Positions 2,223 to 59,792 of a stretch of 64,000 nt of DNA are shown here, piece by piece. The notes beneath the pieces were generated by a model. That model saw nothing but the letters and a program-made list of their open reading frames with translations. It had not been told where the DNA came from and did no database searches. The stretch is from contig OZ024751.1 of the NCBI GenBank assembly GCA_964016885.1, forward strand, positions 46,624,001-46,688,000. The letters run 5' to 3'. How positions within the stretch are numbered: position 1 is the first letter of the stretch; each line of letters opens with the position of its first letter. The stretch is from Eledone cirrhosa. Lineage: Eukaryota. A program made the translations under genes and the position numbers.

Positions 2223-2229
2223 GTAAGTA

Positions 2230-2315
<86 letters not shown>

Positions 2316-2828
2316 ATATTTGGGGAGGGTCATATTTGCGTAATATTGCCAGAATTAATAACGGAACACACTCACTGTTTGGTTGGTTTTCGCTTCTCGC
2401 TGTCTTTTATATCTGCGATCTAACTTACTCGGTCCTCAATGTTGCCATTGACTGACCGACGGTCAAAAATAATACAGATACAATATAGACACAAACACAT
2501 ATATATAGTTTACATAATTTACATAAATCTTTCATTGCACATCTGCAACATCGTCAGTGGTGTTATATTCTTTGTTCCTCCTGTTGTGTTGTATGTCTAC
2601 GCCATTTTTTTTTATTCAGTCTGTCTATATATTTATTTATTTATTTGCTTGTTTGTTTATCTTATTTTATTTTGTCTTCTTTGCGCATGCGTTTGCGCGT
2701 GTGTATAGTGTTATGTGTGCTGTGTGACTAGTGTGTATAGTGTTGTGTCTGCTGGGTGACTAGTGTGTGTTTATGTGCTTGTTGTTATTGTGCTTGTGTA
2801 TGTATTTATTTATCTTATTTTATTTTAT

Positions 2829-2880
<52 letters not shown>

Positions 2881-3173
2881 AAAACAAATAACGAAACGAA
2901 ATTAAACTTCGTTTCGTTTGTAACTCACTTTTGTATGACTGACGCTTAAACAATTAAGTTAAAGATGTACATCCATATATGTATACTGAAATACTAGTAT
3001 GTATATGAATACACACACGTATACATATGTAGATGTACCAAGTTTTTTCACTGGTCACTTTACTGTGAGTGGCCAGCTATTCTGTATGTAAACACACAGA
3101 CAAACCGGTTTTTAGAGTCATACTGGTTTTTGAGGAAACACCTTTCCTCTATTCTCCAGAAAGCCAGACAAGG

Positions 3174-3218
3174 AATATTGAACTAGTTTCGTTGTTGTTA
3201 CAACTCATCAGCAATATT
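3174..3218 (-). ncRNA. Minimal type I hammerhead ribozyme (inverted copy)
   Basis: Exact reverse complement of 3594-3638. Confidence 0.8.
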
Positions 3219-3593
3219 TACCTATCTTCCGGCCTCTCTAGAGAATCGTAAAAGCACATATCGTTATATGCTTTTTCTATGAAAATTAGTAGTGGGCAGA
3301 CTAATTTGCATAGAGTGTGAGTAAGTACCGGTTCAACGGAGACGATAAAAACAAATAACGAAACGAAATTAAACTTCGTTTCGTTTGTAACTCACTTTTG
3401 TATGACTGACGCTTAAACAATTAAGTTAAAGATGTACATCCATATATGTATACTGAAATACTAGTATGTATATGAATACACATACTCATACTCACACTCT
3501 ATGCAAATTAGTCTGCCCACTACTAATTTTCATAGAAAAAGCATATAACGATATGTGCTTTTACGATTCTCTAGAGAGGCCGGAAGATAGGTA

Positions 3594-3638
3594 AATATTG
3601 CTGATGAGTTGTAACAACAACGAAACTAGTTCAATATT
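3594..3638 (+). ncRNA. Minimal type I hammerhead ribozyme
   Basis: AAUAUUG-CUGAUGA-GUUG(uaacaa)CAAC-GAAA-CUAG-UU-CAAUAUU. 7-bp stem I, 4-bp stem II, palindromic stem III region AACUAGUU, GUU cleavage triplet. Confidence 0.82.
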
Positions 3639-4060
3639 CCTTGTCTGGCTTTCTGGAGAATAGAGGAAAGGTGTTTCCTCAAAAACCAGTATGACTCTAA
3701 AAACCGGTTTGTCTGTGTGTTTACATACAGAATAGCTGGCCACTCACAGTAAAGTGACCAGTGAAAAAACTTGGTACATCTACATATGTATACGTGTGTG
3801 TATTCATATACATACTAGTATTTCAGTATACATATATGGATGTACATCTTTAACTTAATTGTTTAAGCGTCAGTCATACAAAAGTGAGTTACAAACGAAA
3901 CGAAGTTTAATTTCGTTTCGTTATTTGTTTTTATCGTCTCCGTTGAACCGGTACTTACTCACACTCTATGCAAATTAGTCTGCCCACTACTAATTTTCAT
4001 AGAAAAAGCATATAACGATATGTGCTTTTACGATTCTCTAGAGAGGCCGGAAGATAGGTA

Positions 4061-4105
4061 AATATTGCTGATGAGTTGTAACAACAACGAAACTAGTTCA
4101 ATATT
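4061..4105 (+). ncRNA. Minimal type I hammerhead ribozyme (tandem copy, +467)
   Basis: Identical to 3594-3638. Confidence 0.82.
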
Positions 4106-4342
4106 CCTTGTCTGGCTTTCTGGAGAATAGAGGAAAGGTGTTTCCTCAAAAACCAGTATGACTCTAAAAACCGGTTTGTCTGTGTGTTTACATACAGAAT
4201 AGCTGGCCACTCACAGTAAAGTGACCAGTGAAAAAACTTGGTACATCTACATATGTATACGTGTGTGTATTCATATACATACTAGTATTTCAGTATACAT
4301 ATATGGATGTACATCTTTAACTTAATTGTTTATATTTATATA

Positions 4343-4405
<63 letters not shown>

Positions 4406-4470
4406 TTATTTAATATCTGTTTCGACACACGATTTCATATAAAAAACCTCGCTAAACTAATTCATCGCCG

Positions 4471-4523
<53 letters not shown>

Positions 4524-4700
4524 TGTCTCATTCTCAGTCTTTTACTCTTTCTCCCCCACTCCCTCCACACCTCTCTCTCTCTCTATATATATATATTCAT
4601 TTATAAATATAAATAATATATATATATGTATATATATATGTATATATATATATATGTACACATACACACACACACACACAAATATATATATATATTTACG

Positions 4701-4775
<75 letters not shown>

Positions 4776-4851
4776 ACATATATATATAATATATATATAT
4801 ATATACAATGATATTAAATAAATGGAAACTATATTTATAAAACCATATTTA

Positions 4852-4909
4852 TTCTATTATATATATTTCAAGGGTACCAAACATTTTGGTACGCTATCAT
4901 CAGATAAAA
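4852..4909 (-). ncRNA. Minimal type I hammerhead ribozyme (family shared with 51594)
   Basis: UUUUAU-CUGAUGA-uagcGUACCAAA(aug)UUUGGUACccuu-GAAA-UAUAUA-UA-AUAGAA. Confidence 0.75.
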
Positions 4910-5166
4910 TACGAAGTGTGTTTTATAAATTTTGACATAACCAAGGAGAATATACCTTAACGGTTCAAGTTATCCTTATATATATATATGTATATATATA
5001 TGTATATATATATGTATATATATATGTATATATGTATATATATATGTATATATGTATATATATATGTATATATGTATAAATATATGTATATATGTATATA
5101 TATATGTATATATATATGTATATATATATGTATATATATATGTATATATATATGTATATATATATG

Positions 5167-5255
5167 TTGGAGATGCAGGATATGGCAGCGATAATGAGGG
5201 ACAGAGACCGCTGGAGAGAACTCGTCCATGGATCTCGGGAATTTTACCCGCCTTA
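5167..5255 (+). mobile_element. Short RTE-like LINE 3' fragment
   Basis: Translates [28 protein letters not shown], resembling the 'AxDRxxWR' C-terminus of RTE-type ORFs; followed by a short tagata repeat. Confidence 0.5.
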
Positions 5256-5321
5256 GATAGATATGTATATAGATATAGATAGGTAAATATACACGGGTGT
5301 GTATGATTGTGTATAGAAGAT

Positions 5322-5729
5322 TATATTAATAAGAGGAATTCCAACTTTGTCTGATTTACTCGTTTTATTTACAATCCTTTAAAATATATATAATATGGTA
5401 TTATAATGAAATAGTATGATAGAATATTAAATTCTAAGTGTTAATTGAACAAGTACTTTCATGCTTTCGCAATCTTCAGGTTCATGATATGTGGTGACAG
5501 TCGAGTTTGCAATTTTCAACTGTTGAAAATTTTCAACAGTTGAAAATTGCAAACTCGACTGTCACCACATATCATGAACCTGAAGATTGCGAAAGCATGA
5601 AAGTACTTGTTCAATTAACACTTAGAATTTAATATTCTATCATACTATTTCATTATAATACCATATTATATATATTTTAAAGGATTGTAAATAAAACGAG
5701 TAAATCAGACAAAGTTGGAATTCCTCTTA

Positions 5730-5737
<8 letters not shown>
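5322..5737. repeat. Perfect palindrome, 208-bp arms, no spacer, one HHR per arm
   Basis: Centre gaaaa|ttttc at 5529/5530; right end runs into (TA)n. Confidence 0.93.
5575..5613 (+). ncRNA. Minimal type I hammerhead ribozyme (mirror copy on - strand at 5446-5484)
   Basis: UGAAC-CUGAAGA-uUGC(gaaa)GCAu-GAAA-GUAC-UU-GUUCA. Palindromic AAGUACUU, CUU triplet. Confidence 0.78.
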
Positions 5738-5765
<28 letters not shown>

Positions 5766-5766
<1 letters not shown>

Positions 5767-5946
5767 GTTATTCCGGATTGAATCGGAGGTAACCACAGTA
5801 AGTAAGGTACTCAATATATTGCAGAGTATATAAGTTTTAATATAGATGACATTCTACAGGACTAGAACTGTTTCATTCTTTAGAAATCATCAGGAATCCC
5901 TGATGATTTCTAAAGAATGAAATAGTGCTAGTCCTGTAGAATCTCA

Positions 5947-5950
<4 letters not shown>
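5766..5950. mobile_element. Short dispersed element ending in a fold-back hairpin with CUGAUGA...GAAAC cores (other copies 27688-27850, 60637-60828; fragment 25433-25460)
   Basis: Shared 'aatcggaggtaaccacagtaagtaaggtactcaata' and 'ttctacaggactagaactgtttcattc...tcatcagg / cctgatga...gaatgaaacagttctagtcctgtagaa'. Flanked by TA or CA repeats. Confidence 0.65.
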
Positions 5951-5987
<37 letters not shown>

Positions 5988-6036
5988 TCCACCACTCCCC
6001 TACACACCCTTTGAACTCTCTTCCCACACACTTTTC

Positions 6037-6069
6037 ACCTGAAGAAGGGCTTCTGCCCGAAACGTCGTT
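6037..6069 (+). ncRNA. HHR-like motif of Penelope-like type
   Basis: CUGAAGAA-GGGC(uucu)GCCC-GAAACGUC; stem I only 2 bp. Followed by aataaa, a T-rich tail and (TA)n. Confidence 0.55.
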
Positions 6070-6153
6070 CCCCACTACCACCCCAGTCTCAAGAGCGTGA
6101 AATTAATAAACCTTTGTTCGTACTGCCTCTCTGTTTTGTTCCCGTTCAATTTT

Positions 6154-6219
<66 letters not shown>

Positions 6220-6345
6220 TATTATGTATTTATTGCCTTCTTGTGGCTCTTGCAATAAAGATGTTAAGATCAACTTAACTACTATAATCATGATTACGAT
6301 GACGACGTTGATGATGATGATGTTGATGATGATGATGATAATGAC

Positions 6346-6385
<40 letters not shown>

Positions 6386-6488
6386 GTGGTAATCTTGATG
6401 ATGATGATGATGTTGAAGATGATGATGATTCTGATAATGTATTAGTCAATAATAGAATTTAATTGAGTGTCGTTTCTCCTGGCATTAG

Positions 6489-6627
6489 ACGAACGGGTGA
6501 TCAAGAACAAGACCCTATACGAAGCTACAGACGGACGTGATGCCTTAGCTAAAGCCCTCTATGCCAGACTCTTTGGTTGGATTGTACGTCAAGTAAACGT
6601 CCGCTTGGGGGCGCTCATTCAATACAA
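6489..6627 (+). CDS. Myosin motor exon: (D)ERVIKNKTLYEATDGRDALAKALYARLFGWIVRQVNVRLGALIQY
   Basis: cattag acceptor, gtaagt donor, phase 1-2. Contains the hallmark RDALAKALYxRLFxWIV motif. Not in the ORF track. Confidence 0.95.
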
Positions 6628-6765
6628 GTAAGTCTAATGGTTGGATTGTACGTCAAGTAAACGTCCGCTTGGGGGCGCTCATTCAATACAAGTAAGTCTA
6701 ATGGTTGGATTGTACGTCAAGTAAACGCCCGCTTGGGGGCGCTCATTCAATACAAGTAAGTCTAA
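6574..6765 (+). repeat. 64-bp unit x3 comprising the 3' end of the myosin exon and its splice donor
   Basis: Unit tggttggattg...tacaagtaagtctaa at 6574, 6638 and 6702; one substitution in copy 3. Confidence 0.95.
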
Positions 6766-8078: not shown

Positions 8079-10290
8079 CTTATCTCTTTCTCTTAATTTC
8101 GAGTATATTTTTTTGACCGGCCACCTTCCTGGTGGCAAGGTTGTAAAAGAAAAGAAATTGTCATCCCTTGAATCGCAAGAATGTTTTGCAAATTTTGAAG
8201 GTGCCAGCTATCGTAGCCATTTGTAGACTATGAATTAGGGAGCTGCGCTCTTTGTCCGCAAATCCAAGTTCAGTCATACTTTGGTCCAAGCGGGTTGGTA
8301 TATAACCTGTAGCTCCAATAATGACTGGTATGAAGCTAAAGGTGTACCTTGGATACTGGATTTGTAAACTCCTCATCAATGGTCCGTAGATGTCCTCCTT
8401 CTCCTGTATTTTTCTGACAACGTTTACATCAAGTGGGCAGCTGATCTCCACAACAGAACACGTTTTCAATGTGTGGTCCCAAACTACAATATCAGGCCGG
8501 TTGTGCTTTAATTTGGTGGCAGTTTTTATTTTCAGGTTCCACCAGTATTCCTTAGTGCCATTTGTCTCAATATATTCTTCCTCGTTTGTTGTTAATTTTG
8601 TTTTCCGAAGTGCGTTCCAGATAGTTCTAGCTATCCCATCGTGTCTCATGGGGAGGTAGTAGCGAGATGACATTCTTTCGCAGCTGGCAACAATGTGGCT
8701 TACATCCTCGATCTTTGTTTTACATAGCCTACATTTATTGTCAGCTGCTGGCCCTCCTCTTTTGTGCAGCAGATATTTGGTAGGGAGTTCTTGTTCCTGT
8801 ATTGCATAGAGATATCCCTCAAGGTGTGATGTCATAAACTTGTCGGAACTCCATGCCAGGCTTTTTGAGTGGTTTATCCCCTCTATGGTCTGTGTTTTAC
8901 GCCTCAAATATCCATGCACAACCTTTTCTGTAAATTGGTCAATTTTTTTAATCCTGTTTGAACATTGAATAGGATCTTCCGATTTCTCTGGGTGAGAGAT
9001 TTATATCAGGCTTTATTCCATATCTCTCCTCCAGATCAGTCGCTATTCTAATGATATTTCTTTTTCCATGCTCATAAACCTGGGCAAGATGGTTGCCAAC
9101 CTTTTTCCTCTGTTGAAGGTGTTGCTTCAGTGTTACTATCCGAGTCTCATATGTTGTTAATATTGATTTTAGACCCCGGCCACCTTCCTTGCGTGAGAAG
9201 TATAGCCTATCCACATCACCATTGATGTTAAAGTTCCCAGTAACACTGAGAAGTTTTCGAGTTCTAACATCCATCTCACTTAGTTCTTGCAATGACCAGT
9301 TCAGTAGGCCAAATGTTGGCGTTAGAATTGGCACAGCATAAGTATTGTGGGCAATGTATTTGTTGTATGCTGACAGTTCTGATGACCATATTTTCTTTAC
9401 TCTTCTGAGGTATTCAGCTCTGGTTCTCTCCTTATTTATGGGTCCATCATATCTGACATTCTCATCCTGTCCAAGATATCTGTAGTTGTCCCCTGACTGC
9501 AGAGGTTGTATTGTCAGGCCGTTCATCTCTAGATTTCTAGAGGAGGGCACAGCTCTTCCACGCTTTACTGCCAAATATGCACACTTGGACTCACCAAATT
9601 TCATTTTGATGTCGGTTGAAAATTGTGTAATGAGGTCCAATTGTTTCTTGATGTCATTGATATTTGGCCCATACAACTTCAGGTCATCAACAAAGAAAAG
9701 ATGGGAGATACTTCTGGGCCCACTTCTTTGTCCACCTTGTTTCCTGAGTAGGTAAGGTAGTGGATTCAGTGAGAGAACGAAGAGTAGCACTGACAAGCTA
9801 TCACCCTGAAAGATGCCCTTCTGGTAATGAATCTTATCAGTCTTAACCTGCTCCTTCTCACCTCTAAGGATCAAATTGGTGTACCAGTTCTTGGTCAGGC
9901 GTTCAACAGCAGCTACCAATGGTTGTGGGACTTTAGCTAACTGTAACGCCTTAATAATCCACCCATGAGGTACACTATCAAATGCTTTTTGATAGTCCAG
10001 CCACACGACAGTCATGTTTCTGCGATTCTTTGTTGTTTTTTCCTGAATCATTTTGTTAGTTAGTAGGTGATCTATGCAACCCCACACCTCCCTCTTTCCA
10101 CCAGCTTGCTCAGGTGTTATGATGTTGTTGGTAGCACAGTGATCCTGTAAGAACAGGTTAAGGCACCCAGTATATAATTTATACATGATGTTTTGGCAGG
10201 CAATTGGACGGTAATTTTTAGCAAGGGTGGTTTGGCTATTTTTGGGAATGAGGAGAGTAGTGGCAGTTGATAACCATCTGGGCAGTTCTT
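8079..10290 (-). mobile_element. 5'-truncated RLE-type non-LTR retrotransposon (R4/Dong-like): RT, CCHC knuckle, restriction-like endonuclease; one frameshift
   Basis: NYRPIAC, WLDYQKAFDSVPH, GIFQGDSLS, HLFFVDDLKLY, YRYLG, RKEGGRGL (8948-10186). CRLC..H....C, RHD, NRPDIVVWD...VEISCP (8161-8919). Frame change near the T-run at 8943-8949. (TATG)n on both sides. Confidence 0.92.
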
Positions 10291-10355
10291 GTGTGTATGT
10301 ATGTATGTATGTATGTATGTATGTATGTATGTATGTATGTATGTATGTATGTATT

Positions 10356-10766
10356 CCGGGAGAGATGACCCCTTAGCCTTTGTCAAGGCAGAATTCTAGG
10401 AGAAGGAAGACTCTGATATAACACCTGCAACCCTTATGGTATCCAATGATGTTGACTTGTTCTTCTTTTTGGTAAATATCATCTTGGTTAAGAGAGTGGG
10501 ACTGGCTTTGTGCAGTGCCTTTGCTCACTATAAAAGCTTCACGACACAGGCATTGCTTTATATCTGCAGATCTCTCTGCACTTGTTGTCACATGGTACCA
10601 TGGGCCCAGCACTATGTGTCAATAATTGTCACAAGTGTAGTGTTTGTACCAGAGTGTTCAAGTCGCTGGCTGGACTAAAAGGTCACACTTGTTCAACGCA
10701 TCGGTAGGGGTTCTCCTACATGGATATAAAGTAGTGGCCGTACTCGAAAACGAGTTGGCAGCTACC
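10356..10766 (+). mobile_element. Non-autonomous RTE-derived element, 5'-truncated copy
   Basis: Near-identical to the 3' two-thirds of 32974-33575; (TATG)n tail. Confidence 0.8.
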
Positions 10767-18227: not shown

Positions 18228-18482
18228 GACACACACACACAGAGGCACACACACACACACAGAGGCACACACACACACACAGAGGCACACACACACACAC
18301 AGAGGCACACACACACACACACACACAGAGGCACACACACACACACAGAGGCACACACACACACACACACACAGAGGCACACACACACACACAGAGGCAC
18401 ACACACACACACACACACAGAGGCACACACACACACACAGAGGCACACAGACACACACAGAGGCACACACACACACACAGAG

Positions 18483-18526
<44 letters not shown>

Positions 18527-18593
18527 GCACACACACACACACAGAGGCACACACACACACACACAGAGGCACACACACACACACACACACAGA

Positions 18594-18636
<43 letters not shown>

Positions 18637-18758
18637 GCACACACACACACACAGAGGCACACACACACACACAGAGGCACACACACACACACAGAGGCAC
18701 ACAGACACACACACAGAGGCACACACACACACAGAGACACACAGACACACACACAGAG

Positions 18759-18808
<50 letters not shown>

Positions 18809-18838
18809 GCACACACAGAGGCACACACACACACAGAG

Positions 18839-18880
<42 letters not shown>

Positions 18881-18992
18881 GCACACACACACACACAGAG
18901 GCACACACAGAGGCACACACACACACAGAGGCACACAGACACACACACAGAGGCACACACACACACAGAGACACACAGACACACACACAGAG

Positions 18993-19052
<60 letters not shown>

Positions 19053-19233
19053 GCACACAGACACACACACACACAGAGGCACACAGACACACACACACAC
19101 AGAGGCACACACAGAGACACACAGACACACACACACACAGACACACAGAGGCACACAGACACACACACACACAGAGGCACACACAGAGACACACAGACAC
19201 ACACACACACAGAGGCACACACAGAGACACACA

Positions 19234-19270
<37 letters not shown>

Positions 19271-19388
19271 GCACACAGACACACACACACACAGAGGCAC
19301 ACACACACACACACACACACATACACACACACACACACAGAGGCACACAGACACACACACACACAGAGGCACACACAGAGACACACAG

Positions 19389-19420
<32 letters not shown>

Positions 19421-19465
19421 GCACACAGACACACACACACACAGAGGCACACACAGAGACACACA

Positions 19466-19504
<39 letters not shown>

Positions 19505-19550
19505 GCACACAGACACACACACACACAGAGGCACACACAGAGACACACAG

Positions 19551-19582
<32 letters not shown>

Positions 19583-19759
19583 ACACACAGACACATACAC
19601 ACACAGAGGCACACACAGAGACACACAGACACACACACACACACTCACACACAGAGACACACAGACACACACACACACAGAGGCACACACAGAGACACAC
19701 AGACACACACACGCACACACACACACAGAGACACACAGACACACACACAGAGGCACACA

Positions 19760-19798
<39 letters not shown>

Positions 19799-19939
19799 GC
19801 ACACAGACACACACACACACAGAGGCACACACAGAGACACACAGATACACACACACACAGAGGCACACACAGAGACACACAGACACACACACGCACACAC
19901 ACACACAGAGACACACAGACACACACACAGAGGCACACA

Positions 19940-19978
<39 letters not shown>

Positions 19979-20119
19979 GCACACAGACACACACACACAC
20001 AGAGGCACACACAGAGACACACAGACACACACACACACAGAGGCACACACAGAGACACACAGACACACACACGCACACACACACACAGAGACACACAGAC
20101 ACACACACAGAGGCACACA

Positions 20120-20158
<39 letters not shown>

Positions 20159-20204
20159 GCACACAGACACACACACACACAGAGGCACACACAGAGACAC
20201 ACAG

Positions 20205-20236
<32 letters not shown>

Positions 20237-20281
20237 GCACACAGACACACACACACACAGAGGCACACACAGAGACACACA

Positions 20282-20318
<37 letters not shown>

Positions 20319-20364
20319 GCACACAGACACACACACACACAGAGGCACACACAGAGACACACAG

Positions 20365-20396
<32 letters not shown>

Positions 20397-20573
20397 ACAC
20401 ACAGACACATACACACACAGAGGCACACACAGAGACACACAGACACACACACACACACTCACACACAGAGACACACAGACACACACACACACAGAGGCAC
20501 ACACAGAGACACACAGACACACACACGCACACACACACACAGAGACACACAGACACACACACAGAGGCACACA

Positions 20574-20612
<39 letters not shown>

Positions 20613-20791
20613 GCACACAGACACACACACACACAGAGGCACACACAGAGACACACAGACACACACACACACACACACACACACAGAGACACACAGACAC
20701 ACACACACACAGAGGCACACACAGAGACACACAGACACACACACGCACACACACACACAGAGACACACAGACACACACACAGAGGCACACA

Positions 20792-20834
<43 letters not shown>

Positions 20835-20930
20835 GCACACAGACACACACACACACAGAGGCACACACAGAGACACACAGATACACACACACACAGACAC
20901 ACACAGAGACACACAGACACACACACAGAG

Positions 20931-20982
<52 letters not shown>

Positions 20983-21027
20983 GCACACAGACACACACAC
21001 ACACAGAGGCACACACAGAGACACACA

Positions 21028-21064
<37 letters not shown>

Positions 21065-21219
21065 GCACACAGACACACACACACACAGAGGCACACACAG
21101 AGACACACAGACACACACACACACACTCACACACAGAGACACACAGACACACACACACACAGAGGCACACACAGAGACACACAGACACACACACACACAC
21201 ACACACACAGAGACACACA

Positions 21220-21287
<68 letters not shown>

Positions 21288-21340
21288 GAGGCACACACAC
21301 ACACACAGAGGCACACACAGAGGCACACACACACACAGAG

Positions 21341-21378
<38 letters not shown>

Positions 21379-21490
21379 GCACACACACACACACAGAGGC
21401 ACACACAGAGGCACACACACACACAGAGGCACACAGACACACACACAGAGGCACACACACACACAGAGACACACAGACACACACACAGAG

Positions 21491-21544
<54 letters not shown>

Positions 21545-21707
21545 GCACACAGACACACACACACACAGAGGCACACAGACACACACACACACAGAGGCAC
21601 ACACAGAGACACACAGACACACACACACACAGACACACACACACACAGAGGCACACACAGAGACACACAGACACACACACACACAGAGGCACACACAGAG
21701 ACACACA

Positions 21708-21742
<35 letters not shown>

Positions 21743-21860
21743 AGGCACACAGACACACACACACACAGAGGCACACACACACACACACACACATACACAC
21801 ACACACACACAGAGGCACACAGACACACACACACACAGAGGCACACACAGAGACACACAG

Positions 21861-21892
<32 letters not shown>

Positions 21893-22141
21893 GCACACAG
21901 ACACACACACACACAGAGGCACACACAGAGACACACAGACACACACACACACACACACACAGAGACACACAGACACATACACACACAGAGGCACACACAG
22001 AGACACACAGACACACACACACACACTCACACACAGAGACACACAGACACACACACACACAGAGGCACACACAGAGACACACAGACACACACACGCACAC
22101 ACACACACAGAGACACACAGACACACACACAGAGGCACACA

Positions 22142-22180
<39 letters not shown>

Positions 22181-22302
22181 GCACACAGACACACACACAC
22201 ACAGAGACACACAGACACACACACACACAGAGGCACACACAGAGACACACAGATACACACACACACAGACACACACAGAGACACACAGACACACACACAG
22301 AG

Positions 22303-22358
<56 letters not shown>

Positions 22359-22404
22359 GCACACAGACACACACACACACAGAGGCACACACAGAGACAC
22401 ACAG

Positions 22405-22436
<32 letters not shown>

Positions 22437-23777
22437 GCACACAGACACACACACACACAGAGGCACACACAGAGACACACAGACACACACACACACACTC
22501 ACACACAGAGACACACAGACACACACACACACACAGAGGCACACACAGAGACACACAGACACACACACACACACACACACACAGAGACACACAGACACAC
22601 ACACACACACAGAGGCACACACAGAGACACACAGACACACACACACACACACACACACAGAGACACACAGACACACACACACACACAGAGGCACACACAG
22701 AGACACACAGACACACACACACACACACACACACAGAGACACACAGACACACACACACACACAGAGGCACACACAGAGACACACAGACACACACACACAC
22801 ACACACACACAGAGACACACAGACACACACACACACAGAGGCACACACAGAGTCACACAGACACACACACACACACAGAGGCACACACAGAGACACACAG
22901 ACACACACACATACACACACACACAGAGACACACAGACACACACACACACACAGAGGCACACACAGAGACACACAGACACACACACACACACACACACAC
23001 AGAGACACACAGACACACACACACACACAGAGGCACACACAGAGACACACAGACACACACACACACACACACACACAGAGACACACAGACACACACACAC
23101 ACACAGAGGCACACACAGAGACACACAGACACACACACACACACACACACACAGAGACACACAGACACACACACACACACAGAGGCACACACAGAGACAC
23201 ACAGACACACACACACACACACACACACAGAGACACACAGACACACACACACACACAGAGGCACACACAGAGACACACAGACACACACACACACACACAC
23301 ACACAGAGACACACAGACACACACACACACACAGAGGCACACACAGAGACACACAGACACACACACACACACACACACACAGAGACACACAGACACACAC
23401 ACACACAGAGGCACACACAGAGTCACACAGACACACACACACACACAGAGGCACACACAGAGACACACAGACACACACACACACACACACACACAGAGAC
23501 ACACAGACACACACACACACACAGAGGCACACACAGAGACACACAGACACACACACACACACACACACACAGAGACACACAGACACACACACACACACAG
23601 AGGCACACACAGAGACACACAGACACACACACACACACACACACACAGAGACACACAGACACACACACACACACAGAGGCACACACAGAGACACACAGAC
23701 ACACACACACACACACACACACAGAGACACACAGACACACACACACACAGAGGCACACACAGAGTCACACACACACA
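18228..23777. repeat. 5.5-kb compound (CA)n satellite punctuated by gagg/gaga/ga
   Basis: Directly visible; explains the CV and HT ORFs over 1000 aa. Confidence 0.97.
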
Positions 23778-25175: not shown

Positions 25176-25363
25176 CCGAAGGAAATGTGGTAAGGAACCA
25201 GGTGGACCATAACGCACCAAAGTACTCAATACTTGAGGTAGTAGAGTGGGTAATAGGAACCAGTAAGACCCCGACAGCTGAGCTCAAGCCGTTTCGACGG
25301 CTAATTCAGTCCAGAATTAGCCGTCGAAACGGCTTGAGCTCAGCTGTCGGGGTCTTACTGGTT

Positions 25364-25368
<5 letters not shown>
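25176..25368. mobile_element. Short TA-flanked element ending in a fold-back hairpin (other copies 31779-32113 with the hairpin duplicated, and 60344-60500)
   Basis: Shared 'gagctcaagccgtttcgacggct' hairpin and 'gagtactttggtgcgttatggtccacctggttccttaccacatttccttcg' body. Confidence 0.7.
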
Positions 25369-31760: not shown

Positions 31761-32112
31761 ATATATATATATATATATATAGGAAAAAGTACGACCCCGA
31801 CGGCAGAGCTCAAGTCGTTTCGACGGCTATTTCTGAACTATTTAGTCCAGAAATAGCCGTCGAAACGGCTTGAGCTCTGCCGTCGGGGTCGTACTTTTTC
31901 CTATATATATATATATATAGGAAAAAGTACGACCCCGACGGCAGAGCTCAAGTCGTTTCGACGGCTATTTCTGAACTATTTAGTCCAGAAATAGCCGTCG
32001 AAACGGCTTGAGCTCTGCCGTCATACATTTTCCTATTACCCACTCTACTACCCTAAGTGTTGAGTACTCTGGTGCGTTATGGTCCATCTGGTTCCTTACC
32101 ACATTTCCTTCG

Positions 32113-32369: not shown

Positions 32370-32783
32370 CATATACATATACATATATATACATATACAT
32401 ATACATATACATATGTATGTATATATATATGTATATACATATACATATACATATATATGTACATATACATATATATATATATATATATATGTATATGTAC
32501 ATATATATATGTATATGTACATATATATATATATATGTGTGTGTATGTATATATATACACAGCATACAGGTCAGTTATATACCTTACCTTATTCTTGATG
32601 TAGCACACACATTCATACATACATATACACGCTTACATACACATACATATTTGTAAATACACATATACGCACGCACGCACAAACACACATGTACGTATGA
32701 ATGTATCTATGTGTGTGTGTATACATGTATGTATGTGTATGTATGTGTGTATGTATGTGTGTATGTGTGTATGTATGTATGTA

Positions 32784-32814
<31 letters not shown>

Positions 32815-32973
32815 ATGTATGTGTGTGTGTATGTATGTGTATGTATGTATATATGTATGTGTGTGTATGTGTGTATGTGTGTATGTATGCATGTATGTAT
32901 GTATATGTGTGTGTGTATGTATGTATGTATGTATGTATGTATGTATGTATGTATGTATGTATGTATGTATGTA

Positions 32974-33575
32974 TCACCAGTTGGTGCTACTGGTAACATG
33001 TATCCCAGTACAACCTGTCTCATGGTCGGGTCGTTGGCGACTAAACTGGCAACCCCACCAAGGTTTCTTGGTGAGGAGGGTGACTTTGGACATCCTGCAG
33101 GACTAAAAACAAAACCTGTCAAAGGGCAAAGGAGCTCTTAAGAGTCAATGGCCATCCAAAATCACCGGGAGAGATGACCCCTTAGCCTTTGTCAAGGCAG
33201 AATTCTAGGAGAAGGAAAACTCTGATATAACACCTGTAACCCTGATGGTATCCAATGATGTTGACTTGTTCTTCTTTTTGGTAAATATCATATTGGTTAA
33301 GAGAGTGGGACTGGCTTTGTGCAGTGCCTTTGCTCACTATAAAAGCTTCACGGCACAGGCATTGCTTTATATCTGGAGATCTCTCTGCACTTGTCATCAC
33401 ATGGTACCATGGGCCCAGCACTATGGGTCAATAATTGTCACAAGTGTAGTGTTTGTACCAGAGGTTTCAAGTCGCTGGCTGGACTAAAAAGTCACACTCG
33501 TTCAGCGCATCGGTAGGAGTTCTCCTACATGGATATAAAGTAGTGGCCATACTCGAAGACGAGTTGGCAGCCACC
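32974..33575 (+). mobile_element. Longest copy (~600 bp) of the non-autonomous RTE-derived element; duplicate at 36408-37008
   Basis: RTE 5'UTR-like motif aaggcagaattctaggagaaggaaaactctga. The 3' part encodes C2H2 CSVCTRGFKSLAGLKSHTRSAH* (33445-33516). Terminal ctcgaagacgag hairpin, then (TATG)n. No RT or APE. Confidence 0.75.
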
Positions 33576-33690
33576 ATGTATGTATGTATGTATGTATGTA
33601 TGTATGTATGTATGTATGTATGTATGTATGTATGTATGTATGTATGTGTGTATGTATGTATGTATGTGTGCATGTATGTATGTGTGTATG

Positions 33691-33742
33691 TTATCTCTTT
33701 CTCTTAATTTCGAGTATATTTTCCTGGTGGCAAGGTTGTAAA
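33691..33742 (-). mobile_element. 52-bp 3' tip of the R4-like element in (TATG)n (duplicate at 37116-37167)
   Basis: ttatctctttctcttaatttcgagtatattttcctggtggcaaggttgtaaa matches the 8080-8147 region with an internal deletion. Confidence 0.8.
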
Positions 33743-34024
33743 TGTATGTATATATGTATGTATGTGTGTGTATGTGTATGTATGTATGTATGTGTGTGTG
33801 TGTGTGTGTGAATGTATGTATGTATGTATGTATATATGTATGTGTCTATGTATGTATGTACGTATGTATGTGTGTATGTATGTATGTGTGTGTATGTACG
33901 TATGTATGTGTGTATGTGTGTGTGTGTGTGTGTGTATGTATGTACGTATGTATGTATGTATGTATGTATGTATGTATGTATGTATGTATGTATGTATGTA
34001 TGTATGTATGTATGTGTGTGTGTG

Positions 34025-34058
<34 letters not shown>

Positions 34059-34379
34059 TGTATGTATGTATGTATGTGTGTATGTATGTGTCGTAGAAGC
34101 TTTGGTTTGCGTTTCTTTATTTGTCGTTGATATAAGAAGTCTAAAAGTCGTCGAACAGGTTCCATTGTGTGACACCCAATAGATTTCAGCCAGTCAGTCG
34201 GTCTGACTGTCTGTTTGCCTCACTCTTTCTGTCCACCTGTCTGTCCGGTTGTTTGGTTTGTTGGTTGGTTAGCGAGCCAGCTGCTTTGGTGTTTGATTGG
34301 TCAGCTCTGAGACTGTAGGTTTTTTGCTTTTTGTAGTTTTTTGGTTTTATTTCAGTTCAGATCAACACCTGACGAAGCA

Positions 34380-34983
34380 GATGTATGATTAAAGGTACCC
34401 CACCTCGTATGAGATGTATGATCAAAGGTACCCCACCTCGTATGAGATATATGATCAAAGGTACCCCACCTCGTATGAGATATATGATCAAAGGTATCCC
34501 ACCTCGTATGAGATATATGATCAAAGGTACCCCACCTCGTATGAGATATATGATCAAAGGTATCCCACCTCGTATGAGATATATGATCAAAGGTATCCCA
34601 CCTCGTATGAGATATATGATCAAAGGTACCCCACCTCGTATGAGATATATGATCAAAGGTACCCCACCTCGTATGAGATGTATGATCAAAGGTATCCCAC
34701 CTCGTATGAGATGTATGATCAAAGTTATCCCACCTCGTATGAGATGTATGATCAAAGGTATCCCACCTCGTATGAGATATATGATCAAAGGTATCCCACC
34801 TCGTATGAGATATATGATCAAAGGTACCCCACCTCGTATTAGATATATGATGAAAGGTATCCCACCTAGTATGAGATGTATGATGAAAGGTATCCCACCT
34901 CGTATGAGATGTATGATCAAAGGTATCCCACCTCGTATGAGATATATGATCAAAGGTACCCCACCTCGTATGAGATATATGAT
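34380..34983. repeat. 33-bp minisatellite, about 18 copies
   Basis: Unit atgatcaaaggtaYcccacctcgtatgagatRt. Confidence 0.95.
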
Positions 34984-35548
34984 AACAGTTATTCCATCTC
35001 GTCCGAGTGTTTTGTTTCCCCAGTAATGCGCCATTATTTGGCCGCATAGAGCTACGGCCTTTTACGGTCTGAGTTCAATTCCTGCCGAGGTTAACTTTGC
35101 CTTTCATCCTTACAGGGTTGATGAAAGTACCAGTAATTGCACTGGAGTAATTGCTGGCCTTGTGCCAAAAGTAGAAACAATTATTTATTTAAGCTCAATT
35201 TAAATATTCAGCGCTCCTCATCAATAATATATTACCAAAAAGTTTCAGCAATTCAATAGTTGCACCCTCTCGCCCCCCCCCCCCGCCTCCTCCTATTCCT
35301 CCCATAAAGCCTCCATAAAGCCCCCATCAACAAGGCTGCACAGTGCTACAAGCGAAACAGTGTCACGTGGATGATACTGAGAAAGAATAAATATAGTTAC
35401 CAATATCATCCGTGTAACATAAGAAATGTTACACGGTATAACCCCCCGTACAACACTGATATAAAATCAGATTTGCGAAATATTCTTCTTTTTGATATAA
35501 TAAAATTTCCTCGAACGGCCATAAATTTCAATACAACAGGAAGAGGGA

Positions 35549-36009: not shown

Positions 36010-36209
36010 NNNNNNNNNNNNNNNNNNNNNNNNNNNNNNNNNNNNNNNNNNNNNNNNNNNNNNNNNNNNNNNNNNNNNNNNNNNNNNNNNNNNNNNNNNN
36101 NNNNNNNNNNNNNNNNNNNNNNNNNNNNNNNNNNNNNNNNNNNNNNNNNNNNNNNNNNNNNNNNNNNNNNNNNNNNNNNNNNNNNNNNNNNNNNNNNNNN
36201 NNNNNNNNN
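36010..36209. other. Assembly gap (200 N)
   Basis: Run of N. Confidence 1.
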
Positions 36210-37341
36210 TGTGTATGTATGTATGTATGTGTGTATGTATGTATGTATGTGTGTGTGTATGTATGTATGTATGTATGTATGTGTGTGTGTATGTATGTGT
36301 ATGTATGTATATATGTGTATGTGTGTGTATGTGTGTATGTGTGTATGTATGCATGTATGTATGTATATGTGTGTGTGTATGTATGTATGTATGTATGTAT
36401 GTATGTATCACCAGTTGGTGCTACTGGTAACATGTATCCCAGTACAACCTGTCTCATGGTCGGGTCGTTGGCGACTAAACTGGCAACCCCACCAAGGTTT
36501 CTTGGTGAGGAGGGTGACTTTGGACATCCTGCAGGACTAAAAACAAAACCTGTCAAAGGGCAAAGGAGCTCTTAAGAGTCAATGGCCATCCAAAATCACC
36601 GGGAGAGATGACCCCTTAGCCTTTGTCAAGGCAGAATTCTAGGAGAAGGAAAACTCTGATATAACACCTGTAACCCTGATGGTATCCAATGATGTTGACT
36701 TGTTCTTCTTTTTGGTAAATATCATATTGGTTAAGAGAGTGGGACTGGCTTTGTGCAGTGCCTTTGCTCACTATAAAAGCTTCACGGCACAGGCATTGCT
36801 TTATATCTGGAGATCTCTCTGCACTTGTCATCACATGGTACCATGGGCCCAGCACTACGGGTCAATAATTGTCACAAGTGTAGTGTTTGTACCAGAGGTT
36901 TCAAGTCGCTGCTGGACTAAAAAGTCACACTCGTTCAGCGCATCGGTAGGAGTTCTCCTACATGGATATAAAGTAGTGGCCATACTCGAAGACGAGTTGG
37001 CAGCCACCATGTATGTATGTATGTATGTATGTATGTATGTATGTATGTATGTATGTATGTATGTATGTATGTATGTGTGTATGTATGTATGTGTGTATGT
37101 ATGTATGTGTGTATGTTATCTCTTTCTCTTAATTTCGAGTATATTTTCCTGGTGGCAAGGTTGTAAATGTATGTATATATGTATGTATGTGTGTGTATGT
37201 GTATGTATGTATGTATGTGTGTGTGTGTGTGTGAATGTATGTATGTATGTATGCATATATGTATGTGTCTATGTATGTATGTATATACGTATGTATGTGT
37301 GTATGTATGTATGTGTGTGTATGTACGTATGTATGTGTGTA

Positions 37342-37374
<33 letters not shown>

Positions 37375-37415
37375 ATGTATGTATGTATGTATGTATGTAT
37401 GTATGTATGTATGTA

Positions 37416-37446
<31 letters not shown>

Positions 37447-39762
37447 ATGTATGTATGTATGTATGTATGTGTGTATGTATGTGTCGTAGAAGCTTTGGTT
37501 TGCGTTTCTTTATTTGTCGTTGATATAAGAAGTCTAAAAGTCGTCGAACAGGTTCCATTGTGTGACACCCAATAGATTTCAGCCAGTCAGTCGGTCTGAC
37601 TGTCTGTTTGCCTCACTCTTTCTGTCCACCTGTCTGTCCGGTTGTTTGGTTTGTTGGTTGGTTAGCGAGCCAGCTGCTTTGGTGTTTGATTGGTCAGCTC
37701 TGAGACTGTAGGTTTTTTGCTTTTTGTAGTTTTTTGGTTTTATTTCAGTTCAGATCAACACCTGACGAAGCAGATGTATGATTAAAGGTACCCCACCTCG
37801 TATGAGATGTATGATCAAAGGTACCCCACCTCGTATGAGATATATGATCAAAGGTATCCCACCTCGTATGAGATATATGATCAAAGGTACCCCACCTCGT
37901 ATGAGATATATGATCAAAGGTATCCCACCTCGTATGAGATATATGATCAAAGGTATCCCACCTCGTATGAGATATATGATCAAAGGTACCCCACCTCGTA
38001 TGAGATGTATGATCAAAGGTACCCCACCTCGTATGAGATGTATGATCAAAGGTATCCCACCTCGTATGAGATATATGATCAAAGGTACCCCACCTCGTAT
38101 GAGATATATGATCAAAGGTATCCCACCTCGTATGAGATATATGATCAAAGGTACCCCACCTCGTATGAGATATATGATCAAAGGTATCCCACCTCGTATG
38201 AGATATATGATCAAAGGTACCCCACCTCGTATGAGATGTATAAAGGTACCCCACCTCGTATGAGATATATGATCAAAGGTACCCCACCTCGTATGAGATA
38301 TATGATCAAAGGTATCCCACCTCGTATGAGATGTATGATCAAAGTTATCCCACCTCGTATGAGATGTATGATCAAAGGTATCCCACCTCGTATGAGATAT
38401 ATGATCAAAGGTATCCCACCTCGTATGAGATATATGATCAAAGGTACCCCACCTCGTATGAGATATATGATCAAAGGTACCCCACCTCGTATGAGATGTA
38501 TGATCAAAGGTATCCCACCTCGTATGAGATGTATGATCAAAGTTATCCCACCTCGTATGAGATGTATGATCAAAGGTATCCCACCTCGTATGAGATATAT
38601 GATCGAAGGTATCCCACCTCGTATGAGATATATGATCAAAGGTACCCCACCTCGTATTAGATATATGATGAAAGGTATCCCACCTCGTATGAGATGTATG
38701 ATCAAAGGTACCCCACCTCGTATGAGATATATGATCAAAGGTATCCCACCTCGTATGAGATGTATGATCAAAGGTATCCCACCTCGTATGAGATGTATGA
38801 TCAAAGGTACCCCACCTCGTATGAGATGTATGATCAAAGGTATCCCACCTCGTATGAGATATATGATCAAAGGTACCCCACCTCGTATGAGATATATGAT
38901 CAAAGGTACCCCACCTCGTATGAGATATATGATAACAGTTATTCCATCTCGTCCGAGTGTTTTGTTTCCCCAGTAATGCGCCATTATTTGGCCGCATAGA
39001 GCTACGGCCTTTTACGGTCTGAGTTCAATTCCTGCCGAGGTTAACTTTGCCTTTCATCCTTACAGGGTTGATGAAAGTACCAGTAATTGCACTGGAGTAA
39101 TTGCTGGCCTTGTGCCAAAAGTAGAAACAATTATTTATTTAAGCTCAATTTAAATATTCAGCGCTCCTCATCAATAATATATTACCAAAAAGTTTCAGCA
39201 ATTCAATAGTTGCACCCTCTCGCCCCCCCCCCGCCCCGCCTCCTCCTATTCCTCCCATAAAGCCTCCATAAAGCCCCCATCAACAAGGCTGCTACAAGCG
39301 AAACAGTGTCACGTGGATGATACTGAGAAAGAATAAATATAGTTACCAATATCATCCGTGTAACATAAGAAATGTTACACGGTATAACCCCCCGTACAAC
39401 ACTGATATAAAATCAGATTTGCGAAATATTCTTCTTTTTGATATAATAAAATTTCCTCGAACGGCCATAAATTTCAATACAACAGGAAGAGGGACTTAAC
39501 GTTTCCGACGCTAGTCCTTTATCAGAAGAAAGAATAAGAAACAAGATAGATTGAGGGGACGGGCGCGGGTATATATATAAATATATATATATATATATGG
39601 TTTGTCTTTGTTTGTGTGTGTATCTCTGTGTGCTTACATATTGACTGTTAATAAAGATACGTTGTTCGATGTTTCCTTACTGATTTGCAGATTTGATTTT
39701 GTTTACAGATGTCTAATGGTTCATATTATTTCTATCAACACTGTAAACGTTTATTTAGTATG

Positions 39763-45950: not shown

Positions 45951-46267
45951 TGTACATACGCAGTCAGTCCATTAGGAAGGGCATCTAGTCATAGAAACCA
46001 AGCCAGAATACAGATCCGTATAGAAAAATGTGAGCTCTGATTGGTCACATAAGGTGAGAACCTGTCTAACCCCCATGCACGTGGGGACAATGGACGTTAA
46101 TCGATGATGATGATGAGGATGATGATGTATATATACATATATACTCATCCATGTACATATGAATATATATATATTTAGCTTCTCGCTAAAACAATTTCTA
46201 TACCTTTCATTTATATATATATATATATATAGAAGTGGTAACACAACAGTTAGTTCACCATACCGAG

Positions 46268-46330
46268 AACAATTGTTTCACCTTAGCGGATCTTCAGCTG
46301 AAGATCCGCTAAGGTGAAAGAATGTTGTGT
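46268..46330. ncRNA. Back-to-back hammerhead cores folded about cag|ctg
   Basis: Minus strand: CUGAAGA-uCC(gcuaa)GGu-GAAAC-AAUU-GUU. Plus strand: the same core with a divergent stem III. Stem I is absent. Confidence 0.55.
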
Positions 46331-46402
46331 TACCAGTTCTACCTAACTCATCCCATTGACTAAGTGCTTTACCACTACGGATATTACCTTCCAGTGTTAT
46401 AC

Positions 46403-46436: not shown

Positions 46437-46480
46437 GTATGCATATATGTATATGTGTGTATGTATATATATATATATAT

Positions 46481-46814
46481 ATAATATAAGATCAAAAGAT
46501 GGTTAAAGGAGTTCCATGTATTTTATTATGCGCATTTCAAAAACAAACATCATCATGCAATAATATTTGTGTTTTCATCAGATAAAACAGGAGAACATGA
46601 TATGAAGGCTAAAAAACACTTGTGGATAGTGCAGTTTTAAATCAACATGTTGATTTAAAACTGCACTATCCACAAGTGTTTTTTAGCCTTCATATCATGT
46701 TCTCCTGTTTTATCTGATGAAAACACAAATATTATTGCATGATGATGTTTGTTTTTGAAATGCGCATAATAAAATACATGGAACTCCTTTAACCATCTTT
46801 TGATCTTATATTAT
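46481..46814. repeat. Perfect palindrome, 167-bp arms, no spacer, one HHR per arm
   Basis: Centre caaca|tgttg at 46647/46648; left flank is (TA)n. Confidence 0.93.
46708..46774 (+). ncRNA. Minimal type I hammerhead ribozyme (mirror copy on - strand at 46521-46587)
   Basis: UUUUAU-CUGAUGA-long stem II (CAAAUAUUAUU/GAUGAUGUUUG)-GAAA-UGCGCA-UA-AUAAAA; palindromic AUGCGCAU. Confidence 0.78.
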
Positions 46815-47399
46815 GTATACTCCAGTCCTACAAACTGTAGAGTGCTTCTTATCCGATATCTGCATTGCTTTATTGTACTACAATAAAACTCACCTCCTAC
46901 ATTATATATATATATACATACACATGTGTGTGTGTGTGTTTGTATATGTATATATATATATATATGTATATATGTATACATATATGCATATGTGCAAGTA
47001 GCTAATGATCAATGTATGTATGTTGTATGCATGTATCATATGTGCATATATACATCTTTCTGTGCATATATTAACGCAAATAAACTCGTTCATATCCCAA
47101 ACACTTAACATTATAGATGAATTTCTGTTGTTGATGATGTTGCTAGTGTTACTGGTGTTATTAATGAAGTTTGATGTTTTTGTTTAGCCCCAGGCTTGCT
47201 AGGGTCCATTTATCAGACGTGTGAGTAAATCCATTCCAGCCATGACAGTCCAGTCTTTACAAAGGGACCCTAAATTATGAATGATTTAGCTGATATTTCT
47301 AGCATGTTATGGGAGCACATAAAGACCCTTCTTTGGAGCTGCTGTTGTTCTTGTTGTCCATTTTTTAGCAACAAAGTCTCCCAAACCCTGCACTAGTTG

Positions 47400-51078: not shown

Positions 51079-51351
51079 GATATATTTATAATATACACAC
51101 ACATATATATATATATATATATGTATATATGATATATTTATAATATACACACATATATATTCATATATCTATAATATATATAGATATGTATATATAATAT
51201 ATTTATAATATACACACATATATATACTCATATATTTATATTATAAATATATATATATATATATGCAAAGTTTTATTTAAATTGTTGGGTTAACAACGAG
51301 TAAATATTTATAACTGATATAAAAGCACTCAACAAGTATTTGGAGTATATT

Positions 51352-51697
51352 TACGATATTAAATAAATGGAAACTATATTTATAAAACCATATTTATTTC
51401 ATTATATATATTTCAGGGATATCATATTAAAAATATGTTATGCCTTCTTCAGACAAAATACAATATAAACAGTCTTATAAATAGATAGATTCGACATACC
51501 TTTCAACTTCGACATACCTTTCAACTTCGACTTCTATTTGAAAAGTTGATTTGGTAGTCGAATCTATCTATTTATAAGACTGTTTATATTGTATTTTGTC
51601 TGAAGAAGGCATAACATATTTTTAATATGATATCCCTGAAATATATATAATGAAATAAATATGGTTTTATAAATATAGTTTCCATTTATTTAATATC

Positions 51698-51700
<3 letters not shown>
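51352..51700. repeat. Inverted repeat, 144-bp arms, 61-bp spacer, one HHR per arm
   Basis: 51352-51495 is the reverse complement of 51557-51700; the spacer has a short tandem ttcgacatacctttcaac. Confidence 0.92.
51594..51655 (+). ncRNA. Minimal type I hammerhead ribozyme (mirror copy on - strand at 51397-51458)
   Basis: UUUUGU-CUGAAGA-AGG..CAUAUU(uuu)AAUAUG..CCU-GAAA-UAUAUA-UA-AUGAAA. Confidence 0.75.
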
Positions 51701-51776
<76 letters not shown>

Positions 51777-59361: not shown

Positions 59362-59792
59362 CAAACTCTGCATAGTGGTTGATGAAAGGAAGGACAACCA
59401 ACCGCAGAAAAACCTGTCAAACAAATGGTAAAGTAAACTCTTCTGTTGTGTCAAAAACCTCCTGAGTGCCGATGCTATGAAAAATTTCTCGGTGCACTCT
59501 GTAAAGTGCGAGACATGAGGCTCCATTTGAGTACTGACTTGGTTCGTGACGACCCGTCATGATCTAACGTCCACTTTCTCTGCTAGCATGGGTTGGACGG
59601 GTCGTCACGAACCAAGTCAGTACTCAAATGGAGCCACATGTCTCGCACTCTACAGAGTTCACCGAGAAATTTTTCATAGCATCGGCACTCAGGAGGTTTT
59701 TGACACAACAGAAGAGTTTACTTTACCATTTGTTTGACAGGTTTTTCTGCGGTTGGTTGTCCTTCCTTTCATCAACCACTTTACAGAGTTTG
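59362..59792. repeat. Inverted repeat, ~197-bp arms with a few mismatches, 37-bp spacer
   Basis: 59362-59558 versus 59596-59792. No hammerhead core seen. Confidence 0.9.

Follow-up and report, generated by a model that had tools for sequence, protein, structure and literature searches.

A 467-nt hammerhead unit in two head-to-head arms within a (TA)n array of a myosin intron in Eledone cirrhosa

The insertion at 2878-4332 was found to consist wholly of copies of one 467-nt unit, arranged as two head-to-head arms with zero mismatches. We consider it probable that this is a young insertion of a many-copy, non-coding retrozyme, whose RNA was copied twice into (TA)n by a borrowed Penelope-type reverse transcriptase-endonuclease. 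Judged by its sequence features, the element adds a new member to the non-LTR retrozymes, which are non-autonomous derivatives of Penelope-like elements (PLEs). A more specific proposal, that a PLE enzyme copied one circular retrozyme RNA from two fixed starts and went more than once round from each, is offered tentatively and is, taken whole, unlikely. Retrozymes are known from many animals and their link to PLEs is already in print, and the element is ordinary in kind. Its value is mechanistic, in that the family shows the PLE insertion signature itself, where earlier arguments were co-occurrence and homology to PLE terminal repeats (pLTRs).

Layout of the insertion and its surroundings

Within the window (the whole 64,000-nt stretch of contig OZ024751.1 that was analysed), the unit was present at one locus only, with the following parts.

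2878..4332, no strand: whole insertion; the hammerhead-sense 3' ends face outward into (TA)n
3489..3955, + strand: unit U, 467 nt, 35% GC, non-coding
3489..4332, + strand: right arm, 844 nt, U1-U844, 1.81 units; stops at the inner fixed terminus U377
2878..3482, - strand: left (inverted) arm, 605 nt, U309-U913, 1.30 units; stops at the outer fixed terminus U446
3483..3488, + strand: junction insert, 6 nt that duplicate the first 6 nt of the right arm
2878..2946, - strand: one-sided tail, 69 nt, U378-U446, between the two fixed termini

The two right-arm repeats, 3489-3865 and 3956-4332, were identical at 377/377 positions, and the left arm, taken as its reverse complement, matched the right-arm copies at 446/446 and 536/536 positions. 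The exact 467-nt layout put forward in the original prediction was thereby confirmed, with sense hammerhead cores at 3601 and 4068 spaced by 467 nt, an antisense copy at 3211 and mismatch-free arms. The predicted 1.3 and 1.8 copies were measured as 1.30 units in the left arm and 1.81 in the right, and the right end, first placed at 4330, was moved to 4332. A credible ORF was absent from the element, as had been claimed, and the longest stop-to-stop frame inside it was 62 aa. The 1.8-copy right arm was missing from the TRF repeat listing of the window.

The arms overlapped only in part, with 536 of the 605 left-arm nucleotides present in the right arm and 446 of the 844 right-arm nucleotides present in the left. 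Both arms crossed the predicted cut site of the hammerhead and jointly needed 913 nt (1.96 units) of continuous template, and both ran identically from U446 into U447. Internal copies of the 69-nt tail were located at 3345-3413 (- strand) and 3866-3934 (+ strand). Across the central junction the match was imperfect (6/9), and the 6-nt insert at 3483-3488 looks like the outcome of end joining with a templated insertion. None of the contigs and reads listed from four sequencing runs bridged the locus-specific central junction.

The element lies in an intron of an unconventional myosin gene and is bordered by microsatellite on both sides.

2223..6488, + strand: host intron of the unconventional myosin gene, between exons 2151-2222 and 6489-6628
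2831..2880, no strand: left (TA)n target array, with a TTT-interrupted end that is seen again on the right
4331..4409, no strand: right (TA)n target array

The exons flanking the intron matched residues 304-328 and 328-374 of P0001. For one myosin exon, the best match was an Octopus bimaculoides protein at 89% identity, and the next best was at about 60%. Both flanks were (TA)n, as originally described, and they had an interrupted marker in common that was either 12 nt or about 50-60 nt long, its length being ambiguous inside a microsatellite. This shared marker may be a target duplication. The right-arm hammerheads were in the myosin sense orientation, again as described, with (+) cores in a gene on the + strand. 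Three splice-donor-like hexamers were found inside the element on the myosin sense strand, at 3065, 3317 and 3884 (+). Downstream at 6574-6765, the last part of a myosin exon and its splice donor were present three times in tandem, with a 64-nt period and 99% identity; this tripled donor could offer alternative donors.

Other elements with similar outlines were noted in the window. In the same myosin intron, 5322-5737 is a perfect palindrome with 208-nt arms that carries hammerhead-like cores at 5580 (+) and 5479 (-) and abuts (TA)n on its right, and a minimal single hammerhead-like core was seen at 6039 (+) within 6039-6070. Short head-to-head palindromes of about five other families were located at 5840-5953, 25253-25368, 31764-32022, 46232-46345, 46476-46819, 51346-51706, 60341-60423 and 60704-60827, and a single hammerhead-like core at 4903 (-), within 4857-4903, was related to the family at 51346-51706. 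In this hand-picked list, the palindromes had one end at (TA)n and a 74-94-nt tail at the other, several carried outward-facing hammerhead-like cores, and the tails shared a hairpin-like motif. They are likely further PLE-type insertions. The tail of the 467-nt element gave no alignment with the tails of these other families in the window, with 2 invariant columns. A one-sided extension was seen in 6/15 palindromes compared to 203/1,990 background draws per side, a comparison that is weak by distance alone; going by the sequences, it is the homologous tails within families that point to a one-sided tail in the other families. Two further long palindromes, at 408-714 and 59362-59792, had neither adjacent (TA)n nor a hammerhead core. 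The window also held a non-LTR retrotransposon at 8161-10372 (- strand) with reverse transcriptase and zinc-binding hits, which lay in (TATG)n and had several truncated relatives in the window; it presumably carries a restriction-like endonuclease motif. A 5.5-kb (AC)-rich microsatellite block occupied 18229-23777, and a 2.2-kb duplication (32772-35002 and 36212-38391, 95% identity) flanked a 200-N gap at 36010-36209, possibly two haplotypes assembled side by side.

Hammerheads, predicted RNA fold and the myosin transcript

Each of the three units that cover the hammerhead site carried the full motif.

3594..3638, + strand: type I hammerhead 1, core at 3601, predicted cut 3631|3632
4061..4105, + strand: type I hammerhead 2, identical to hammerhead 1, core at 4068, predicted cut 4098|4099
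3174..3218, - strand: type I hammerhead, antisense copy, core at 3211, predicted cut 3181|3180
3632..4098, + strand: predicted cut-to-cut monomer, 467 nt

The motif comprised a 7-bp stem I, the core, a 4-5-bp stem II and a GUU triplet, and stem III was a single pair capped by a palindromic tetraloop. A GUU triplet is weaker than GUC or GUA. All three hammerheads matched the Rfam family Hammerhead_HH9 at 37.7 bits (E 1.5e-7) against a family gathering score of 52, and a search of the window at gathering level returned 0 matches. Rfam matches to miRNA and sRNA families at E-value level were far below gathering and were dropped. The window contained the core pattern three times, against 0 in 100 shuffles, and pattern scans gave 0 loci in viral contigs, 0 in prokaryote genomes and 1 in metagenome contigs (L001). 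The original description of a retrozyme-like unit thus held, with one type I hammerhead per unit, two in tandem, and a non-coding 467 nt at 35% GC. It was predicted that the palindrome of the hammerhead can form an 8-bp duplex. An axolotl hammerhead of the type with a one-pair stem III and a palindromic tetraloop was weak alone and efficient as a dimer (PMC7229834), and by analogy the hammerhead of the 467-nt unit likely works as a dimer.

When folded as a circle, the monomer was predicted at -151.1 kcal/mol, compared to -93.1 +/- 5.0 kcal/mol in 60 shuffles, none of which reached it (z -11.7). The opposite strand was predicted at -124.2 kcal/mol (z -5.9), and the linear monomer gave a z of -10.0. 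In the predicted monomer fold the two ends were kept together by a long stem, and a fold with the hammerhead formed lay 1.5 kcal/mol above the optimum. The monomer is thus predicted to be strongly folded while leaving its hammerhead open. Among 10 family variants examined, 6 fell at predicted pairs, where 4 kept the pair and 2 broke it; variants at paired positions were too few to count as covariation and are suggestive at most. None of the 9 variant sites listed was inside the hammerhead, where less than one would be expected by chance.

The orientation of the right-arm hammerheads had also led to the suggestion that the myosin pre-mRNA itself releases the 467-nt monomer, which would make this locus an active producer of circles. 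Folding prediction spoke against it. One hammerhead was always held in an antisense duplex of 446-536 bp, and opening both was predicted to cost 70.8 kcal/mol in the whole element versus 3.0 kcal/mol for the right arm alone. Transcription reaches the antisense arm first, and already in a nascent RNA ending at 3670 the predicted cost of opening hammerhead 1 was 69.3 kcal/mol. A lone hammerhead of such a type is also expected to be weak (PMC7229834). In favour of the suggestion, besides the sense orientation of both hammerheads, the left arm can fold into separate hairpins (z -5.9), and co-transcriptional cutting could outrun the duplex. We regard release from this locus as quite improbable. Because the antisense arm buries one hammerhead and the ribozyme appears to be of the dimer type, the myosin pre-mRNA is expected to release little monomer, although kinetics could allow some. 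With its ribozyme predicted to be silenced by the inverted arm, the locus is probably a product and not an efficient source; transcription from a start within the right arm would avoid the antisense pairing. The inverted arm is further predicted to give perfect double-stranded RNA of about 0.5 kb in the host intron, which would be a likely editing substrate. Cephalopods are known for heavy A-to-I editing.

The family in sequencing runs

One unit in the junction arrangement (3324-3796) was used as the reference and compared with four of the 24 sequencing runs listed. In run X1, which may be neither from the species of the window nor DNA, 1,152 contigs matched the unit at 85% to 100% identity: 563 at 99% or above, 380 at 95-99%, 176 at 90-95% and 33 below 90%. 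Together with the several types of flank and junction, this upheld the prediction of a multi-copy family. The summed depth in X1 was 1.2e5-6.8e5, a sum that does not equal a copy number, and one diverged contig had a depth of 2,385 versus 4.7-23.6 for single-junction contigs. Among the X1 ends listed, the share of matching records that continued into unlike sequence was given as 0.

The ends seen at the locus recurred in X1. (TA)n was joined before 3345 (U446) in at least five X1 contigs and before 3414 (U377) in at least four, and at least five other head-to-head joints were found, each with a different inner 5' break. Since two (TA)n-joined ends recurred and five joints differed in their break, the outer ends of the family are fixed and the inner ends vary. 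The prediction that genomic copies begin at variable permuted positions, when checked on X1, therefore held for the inner 5' breaks alone. None of the five joints sat at a GATC or GANTC site, and no joint skipping the 69 nt was among the X1 joints listed. The five joints and the locus junction were all asymmetric, in a comparison whose design may miss symmetric ones. A letter common to both arms (at 3374, 2907 and 3905) accounted for about 0.2% of X1 depth; another shared letter (at 3324 and 3955) differed from the loose-end consensus of X1 and X4. These shared rare letters make it likely that both arms came from one molecule or one source locus.

Of the 24 listed runs, 20 contained the whole unit or a portion of it, under 16 organism labels and from 17 studies, and only the four compared runs are used as evidence here. 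RNA runs were absent from those listed as containing it, a result that has no bearing on expression. Run X4 contained 9 contigs at a depth of about 10-30 and run X20 a single contig at a depth of 2.35; run X21, with 0 of 12,836,656 reads, counts as no test. In X4 and X20, one contig each left the unit exactly at one or other of the two GANTC sites that it contains (3565 and 3693), like proximity-ligation joints. These exits and the low depth suggest carry-over of a high-copy repeat into other libraries. Horizontal spread across the labelled organisms was not adopted, as the low depth in X4 and X20 fits such carry-over.

Several features of the family are those of PLE insertions. The original prediction of a PLE-type partial tandem with an inverted copy was matched by the locus and by the five further head-to-head joints in X1. 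(TA)n bordered the insertion at left and right and at least 9 of the loose ends listed from X1, and the motif TTGTTT(n)A occurred twice in the unit, exactly at the two outer ends. The metagenome contig L001 carried a PLE at 228-1699, with reverse transcriptase and GIY-YIG hits in two frames, and a hammerhead at 2126-2163, about 430 nt behind the ORF, that was identical to that of the element at 33/38 nt. The match between L001 and the unit was limited to the hammerhead, and tblastn of the L001 proteins against the window gave no hit. L001 is an independent, unrelated PLE, and an autonomous helper was not found among the window and L001.

Copying mechanism and comparison with known elements

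Template length and arm content together limit how the insertion could have been made. Both arms cross the cut site, in agreement with the earlier idea of a template longer than one unit. Because the arms exceed a linear monomer and need 913 nt across that site, the template should have been a circle or an uncut multimer. The single fold-back that had been proposed fails since neither arm contains the other (536/605; 446/844), so that a further step is needed; simple fold-back and a single linear monomer template were thus ruled out by these containment tests. We lean towards two-ended priming. The same element inverted by fold-back (self-priming) of one cDNA, with the 69-nt tail trimmed off at one end, or slippage by one unit between the direct repeats, as the extra event, is rather unlikely. 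It has precedent, as head-to-head PLE junctions have been read as self-priming (PMC3846280) and the tail has been ascribed to endonuclease resolution (PMC8557442). It also offers a simple account of the near-perfect palindromes of other window elements; in the systematic scan, 6/15 window palindromes had 0-8 nt spacers and a one-sided extension of 74-91 nt. The 6/9 match over the junction speaks for it as well, and it explains the rare letters common to both arms equally well. On the other side, besides the extra event, stand the asymmetry of the locus junction and of the five listed X1 joints, symmetric ones being possibly missed, and the work in vitro in which a PLE protein cut and extended both target strands and reverse transcription began at two internal RNA sites bounding the tail (PMC11167929). 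As to the template, we give the circle about an even chance and place the uncut multimeric transcript of a tandem array, for which the hammerhead would be weak or a passenger and a circle unnecessary, somewhat below that. Circle and multimer are indistinguishable from DNA alone. Work in vitro in which a PLE used mainly uncut RNA and insertion persisted with hammerhead mutants (PMC11167929) favours the multimer, as do the weak stem III and the GUU triplet, the 8/9 tested Xenopus retrozyme dimers that did not cleave (bioRxiv 10.64898/2026.07.22.740005) and the multimers contained in axolotl RNA (PMC7229834). The circle is favoured by related coral, mussel and axolotl elements, which accumulate as circles (PMC7229834), by a unit that folds far better than shuffles with its monomer ends joined by a long predicted stem, and by the demand that a multimer span at least 913 nt (1.96 units) if one molecule gave both arms.

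Two further explanations concern the nature of the locus itself. The arms could be mere 5'-truncated terminal repeats of an autonomous PLE, in keeping with PLE insertions being mostly 5'-truncated, tandem or inverted (PMC8557442), with the reported resemblance of retrozymes to pLTRs (bioRxiv 10.64898/2026.07.22.740005) and with the same hammerhead type behind the PLE ORF of L001. We find this improbable: both arms pass from U446 to U447 identically and not at random truncation points, the element is without an ORF, and among the X1 ends and joints listed no record ran into unlike sequence and the 69-nt skip was absent. An assembly artefact of a high-copy repeat would fit arms that are 100% identical, a central junction unbridged in four runs, and the N gap with its flanking duplication elsewhere in the window. 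Against it, the outer ends and the junction type recurred in contigs of an independent run (X1), the flanks carry a duplicated marker, and every copy carries the letters rare in X1, a feature that would be lost in a collapsed consensus. An artefact is thus very improbable.

In the mechanism that we propose, tandem copies elsewhere would be transcribed, and two hammerheads acting as a dimer would cut out the 467-nt monomer. A host ligase may then close the monomer to a circle, for which we see an even chance, with the uncut multimer as a somewhat less probable alternative. The PLE protein would cut both strands of the (TA)n array, and each DNA end would, slightly more probably than by another route, prime at one fixed U-rich RNA site (U377 or U446, with a 2-3 nt TA match). 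Two-ended priming of this kind would give one arm with the tail and one without. Each cDNA would read through the ribozyme site for more than one unit, the two of them ending at positions unrelated to each other (U1 and U309), and the two cDNA ends would be joined with the 6-nt templated insert. At this locus, the product in the myosin pre-mRNA would be a perfect RNA duplex of about 0.5 kb, with the ribozyme silenced by the inverted arm.

All sequence-level features of non-LTR retrozymes that were looked for were found in the element, and so were the structural marks of PLE insertion, while the RT plus GIY-YIG ORF of an autonomous PLE was absent. As in the metazoan non-LTR retrozymes of PMC7229834, the tandem unit is non-coding, low in GC and equipped with a single type I hammerhead, the predicted circle is highly self-paired and leaves the ribozyme open, and stem III resembles that of the axolotl HHR_Amex1. 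The unit of 467 nt is slightly above the 150-450 nt range given there and within the 51-972 bp of the preprint by Li, Clavereau and Pollet (bioRxiv 10.64898/2026.07.22.740005), in which intronic copies are common too. Unlike the retrozymes of PMC7229834, the element lies in a (TA)n target and combines an inverted arm with two fixed ends, and it is known here from sequence; the main text of that paper contains neither octopus nor cephalopods nor the word 'inverted'. No report of a cephalopod retrozyme was found in the literature searched, although one may be included in the supplementary data of PMC7229834 or the 2026 preprint, and the O. vulgaris repeat paper with its supplement (PMC13282606) has recently active PLE families and, in the text available, no ribozyme or retrozyme. 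The preprint based its proposal of a PLE origin on co-occurrence and on homology to pLTRs, mostly from vertebrates, whereas here the insertion signature is the evidence and pLTR homology beyond the hammerhead was not found. Its first filter was TRF, which missed the 1.8-copy arm here.

Endonuclease-bearing PLEs (PMC8557442, PMC3846280, PMC11167929) have the same partial tandem with a head-to-head inverted, 5'-truncated copy and a tail at one end, the same two internal start sites, a type I hammerhead and an AT-rich or (TA)n target, with an insertion bias to match (PMC8557442). In contrast to these, there is no RT-GIY-YIG ORF here, the tail is 69 nt versus the 30-40 nt in print, both arms exceed one unit, and the junction is not a palindrome. 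With a family that is short, young and present in many copies, counting can discriminate between two-ended priming and fold-back, and between circle and multimer. If copying of a circle from two starts is true, it would be direct genomic evidence that animal retrozymes move as circles via the PLE machinery, with the inverted arm and the one-sided tail of PLEs accounted for in a 467-nt protein-free model. In L1 twin priming, two cDNAs are primed from both target ends and joined head to head; the arms are non-overlapping parts of one linear RNA, and one of them starts at the poly(A) tail. The proposed mechanism resembles twin priming in its two cDNAs from two target ends and their head-to-head join, and differs from it in having overlapping arms, each longer than one unit, that begin at two fixed internal positions.
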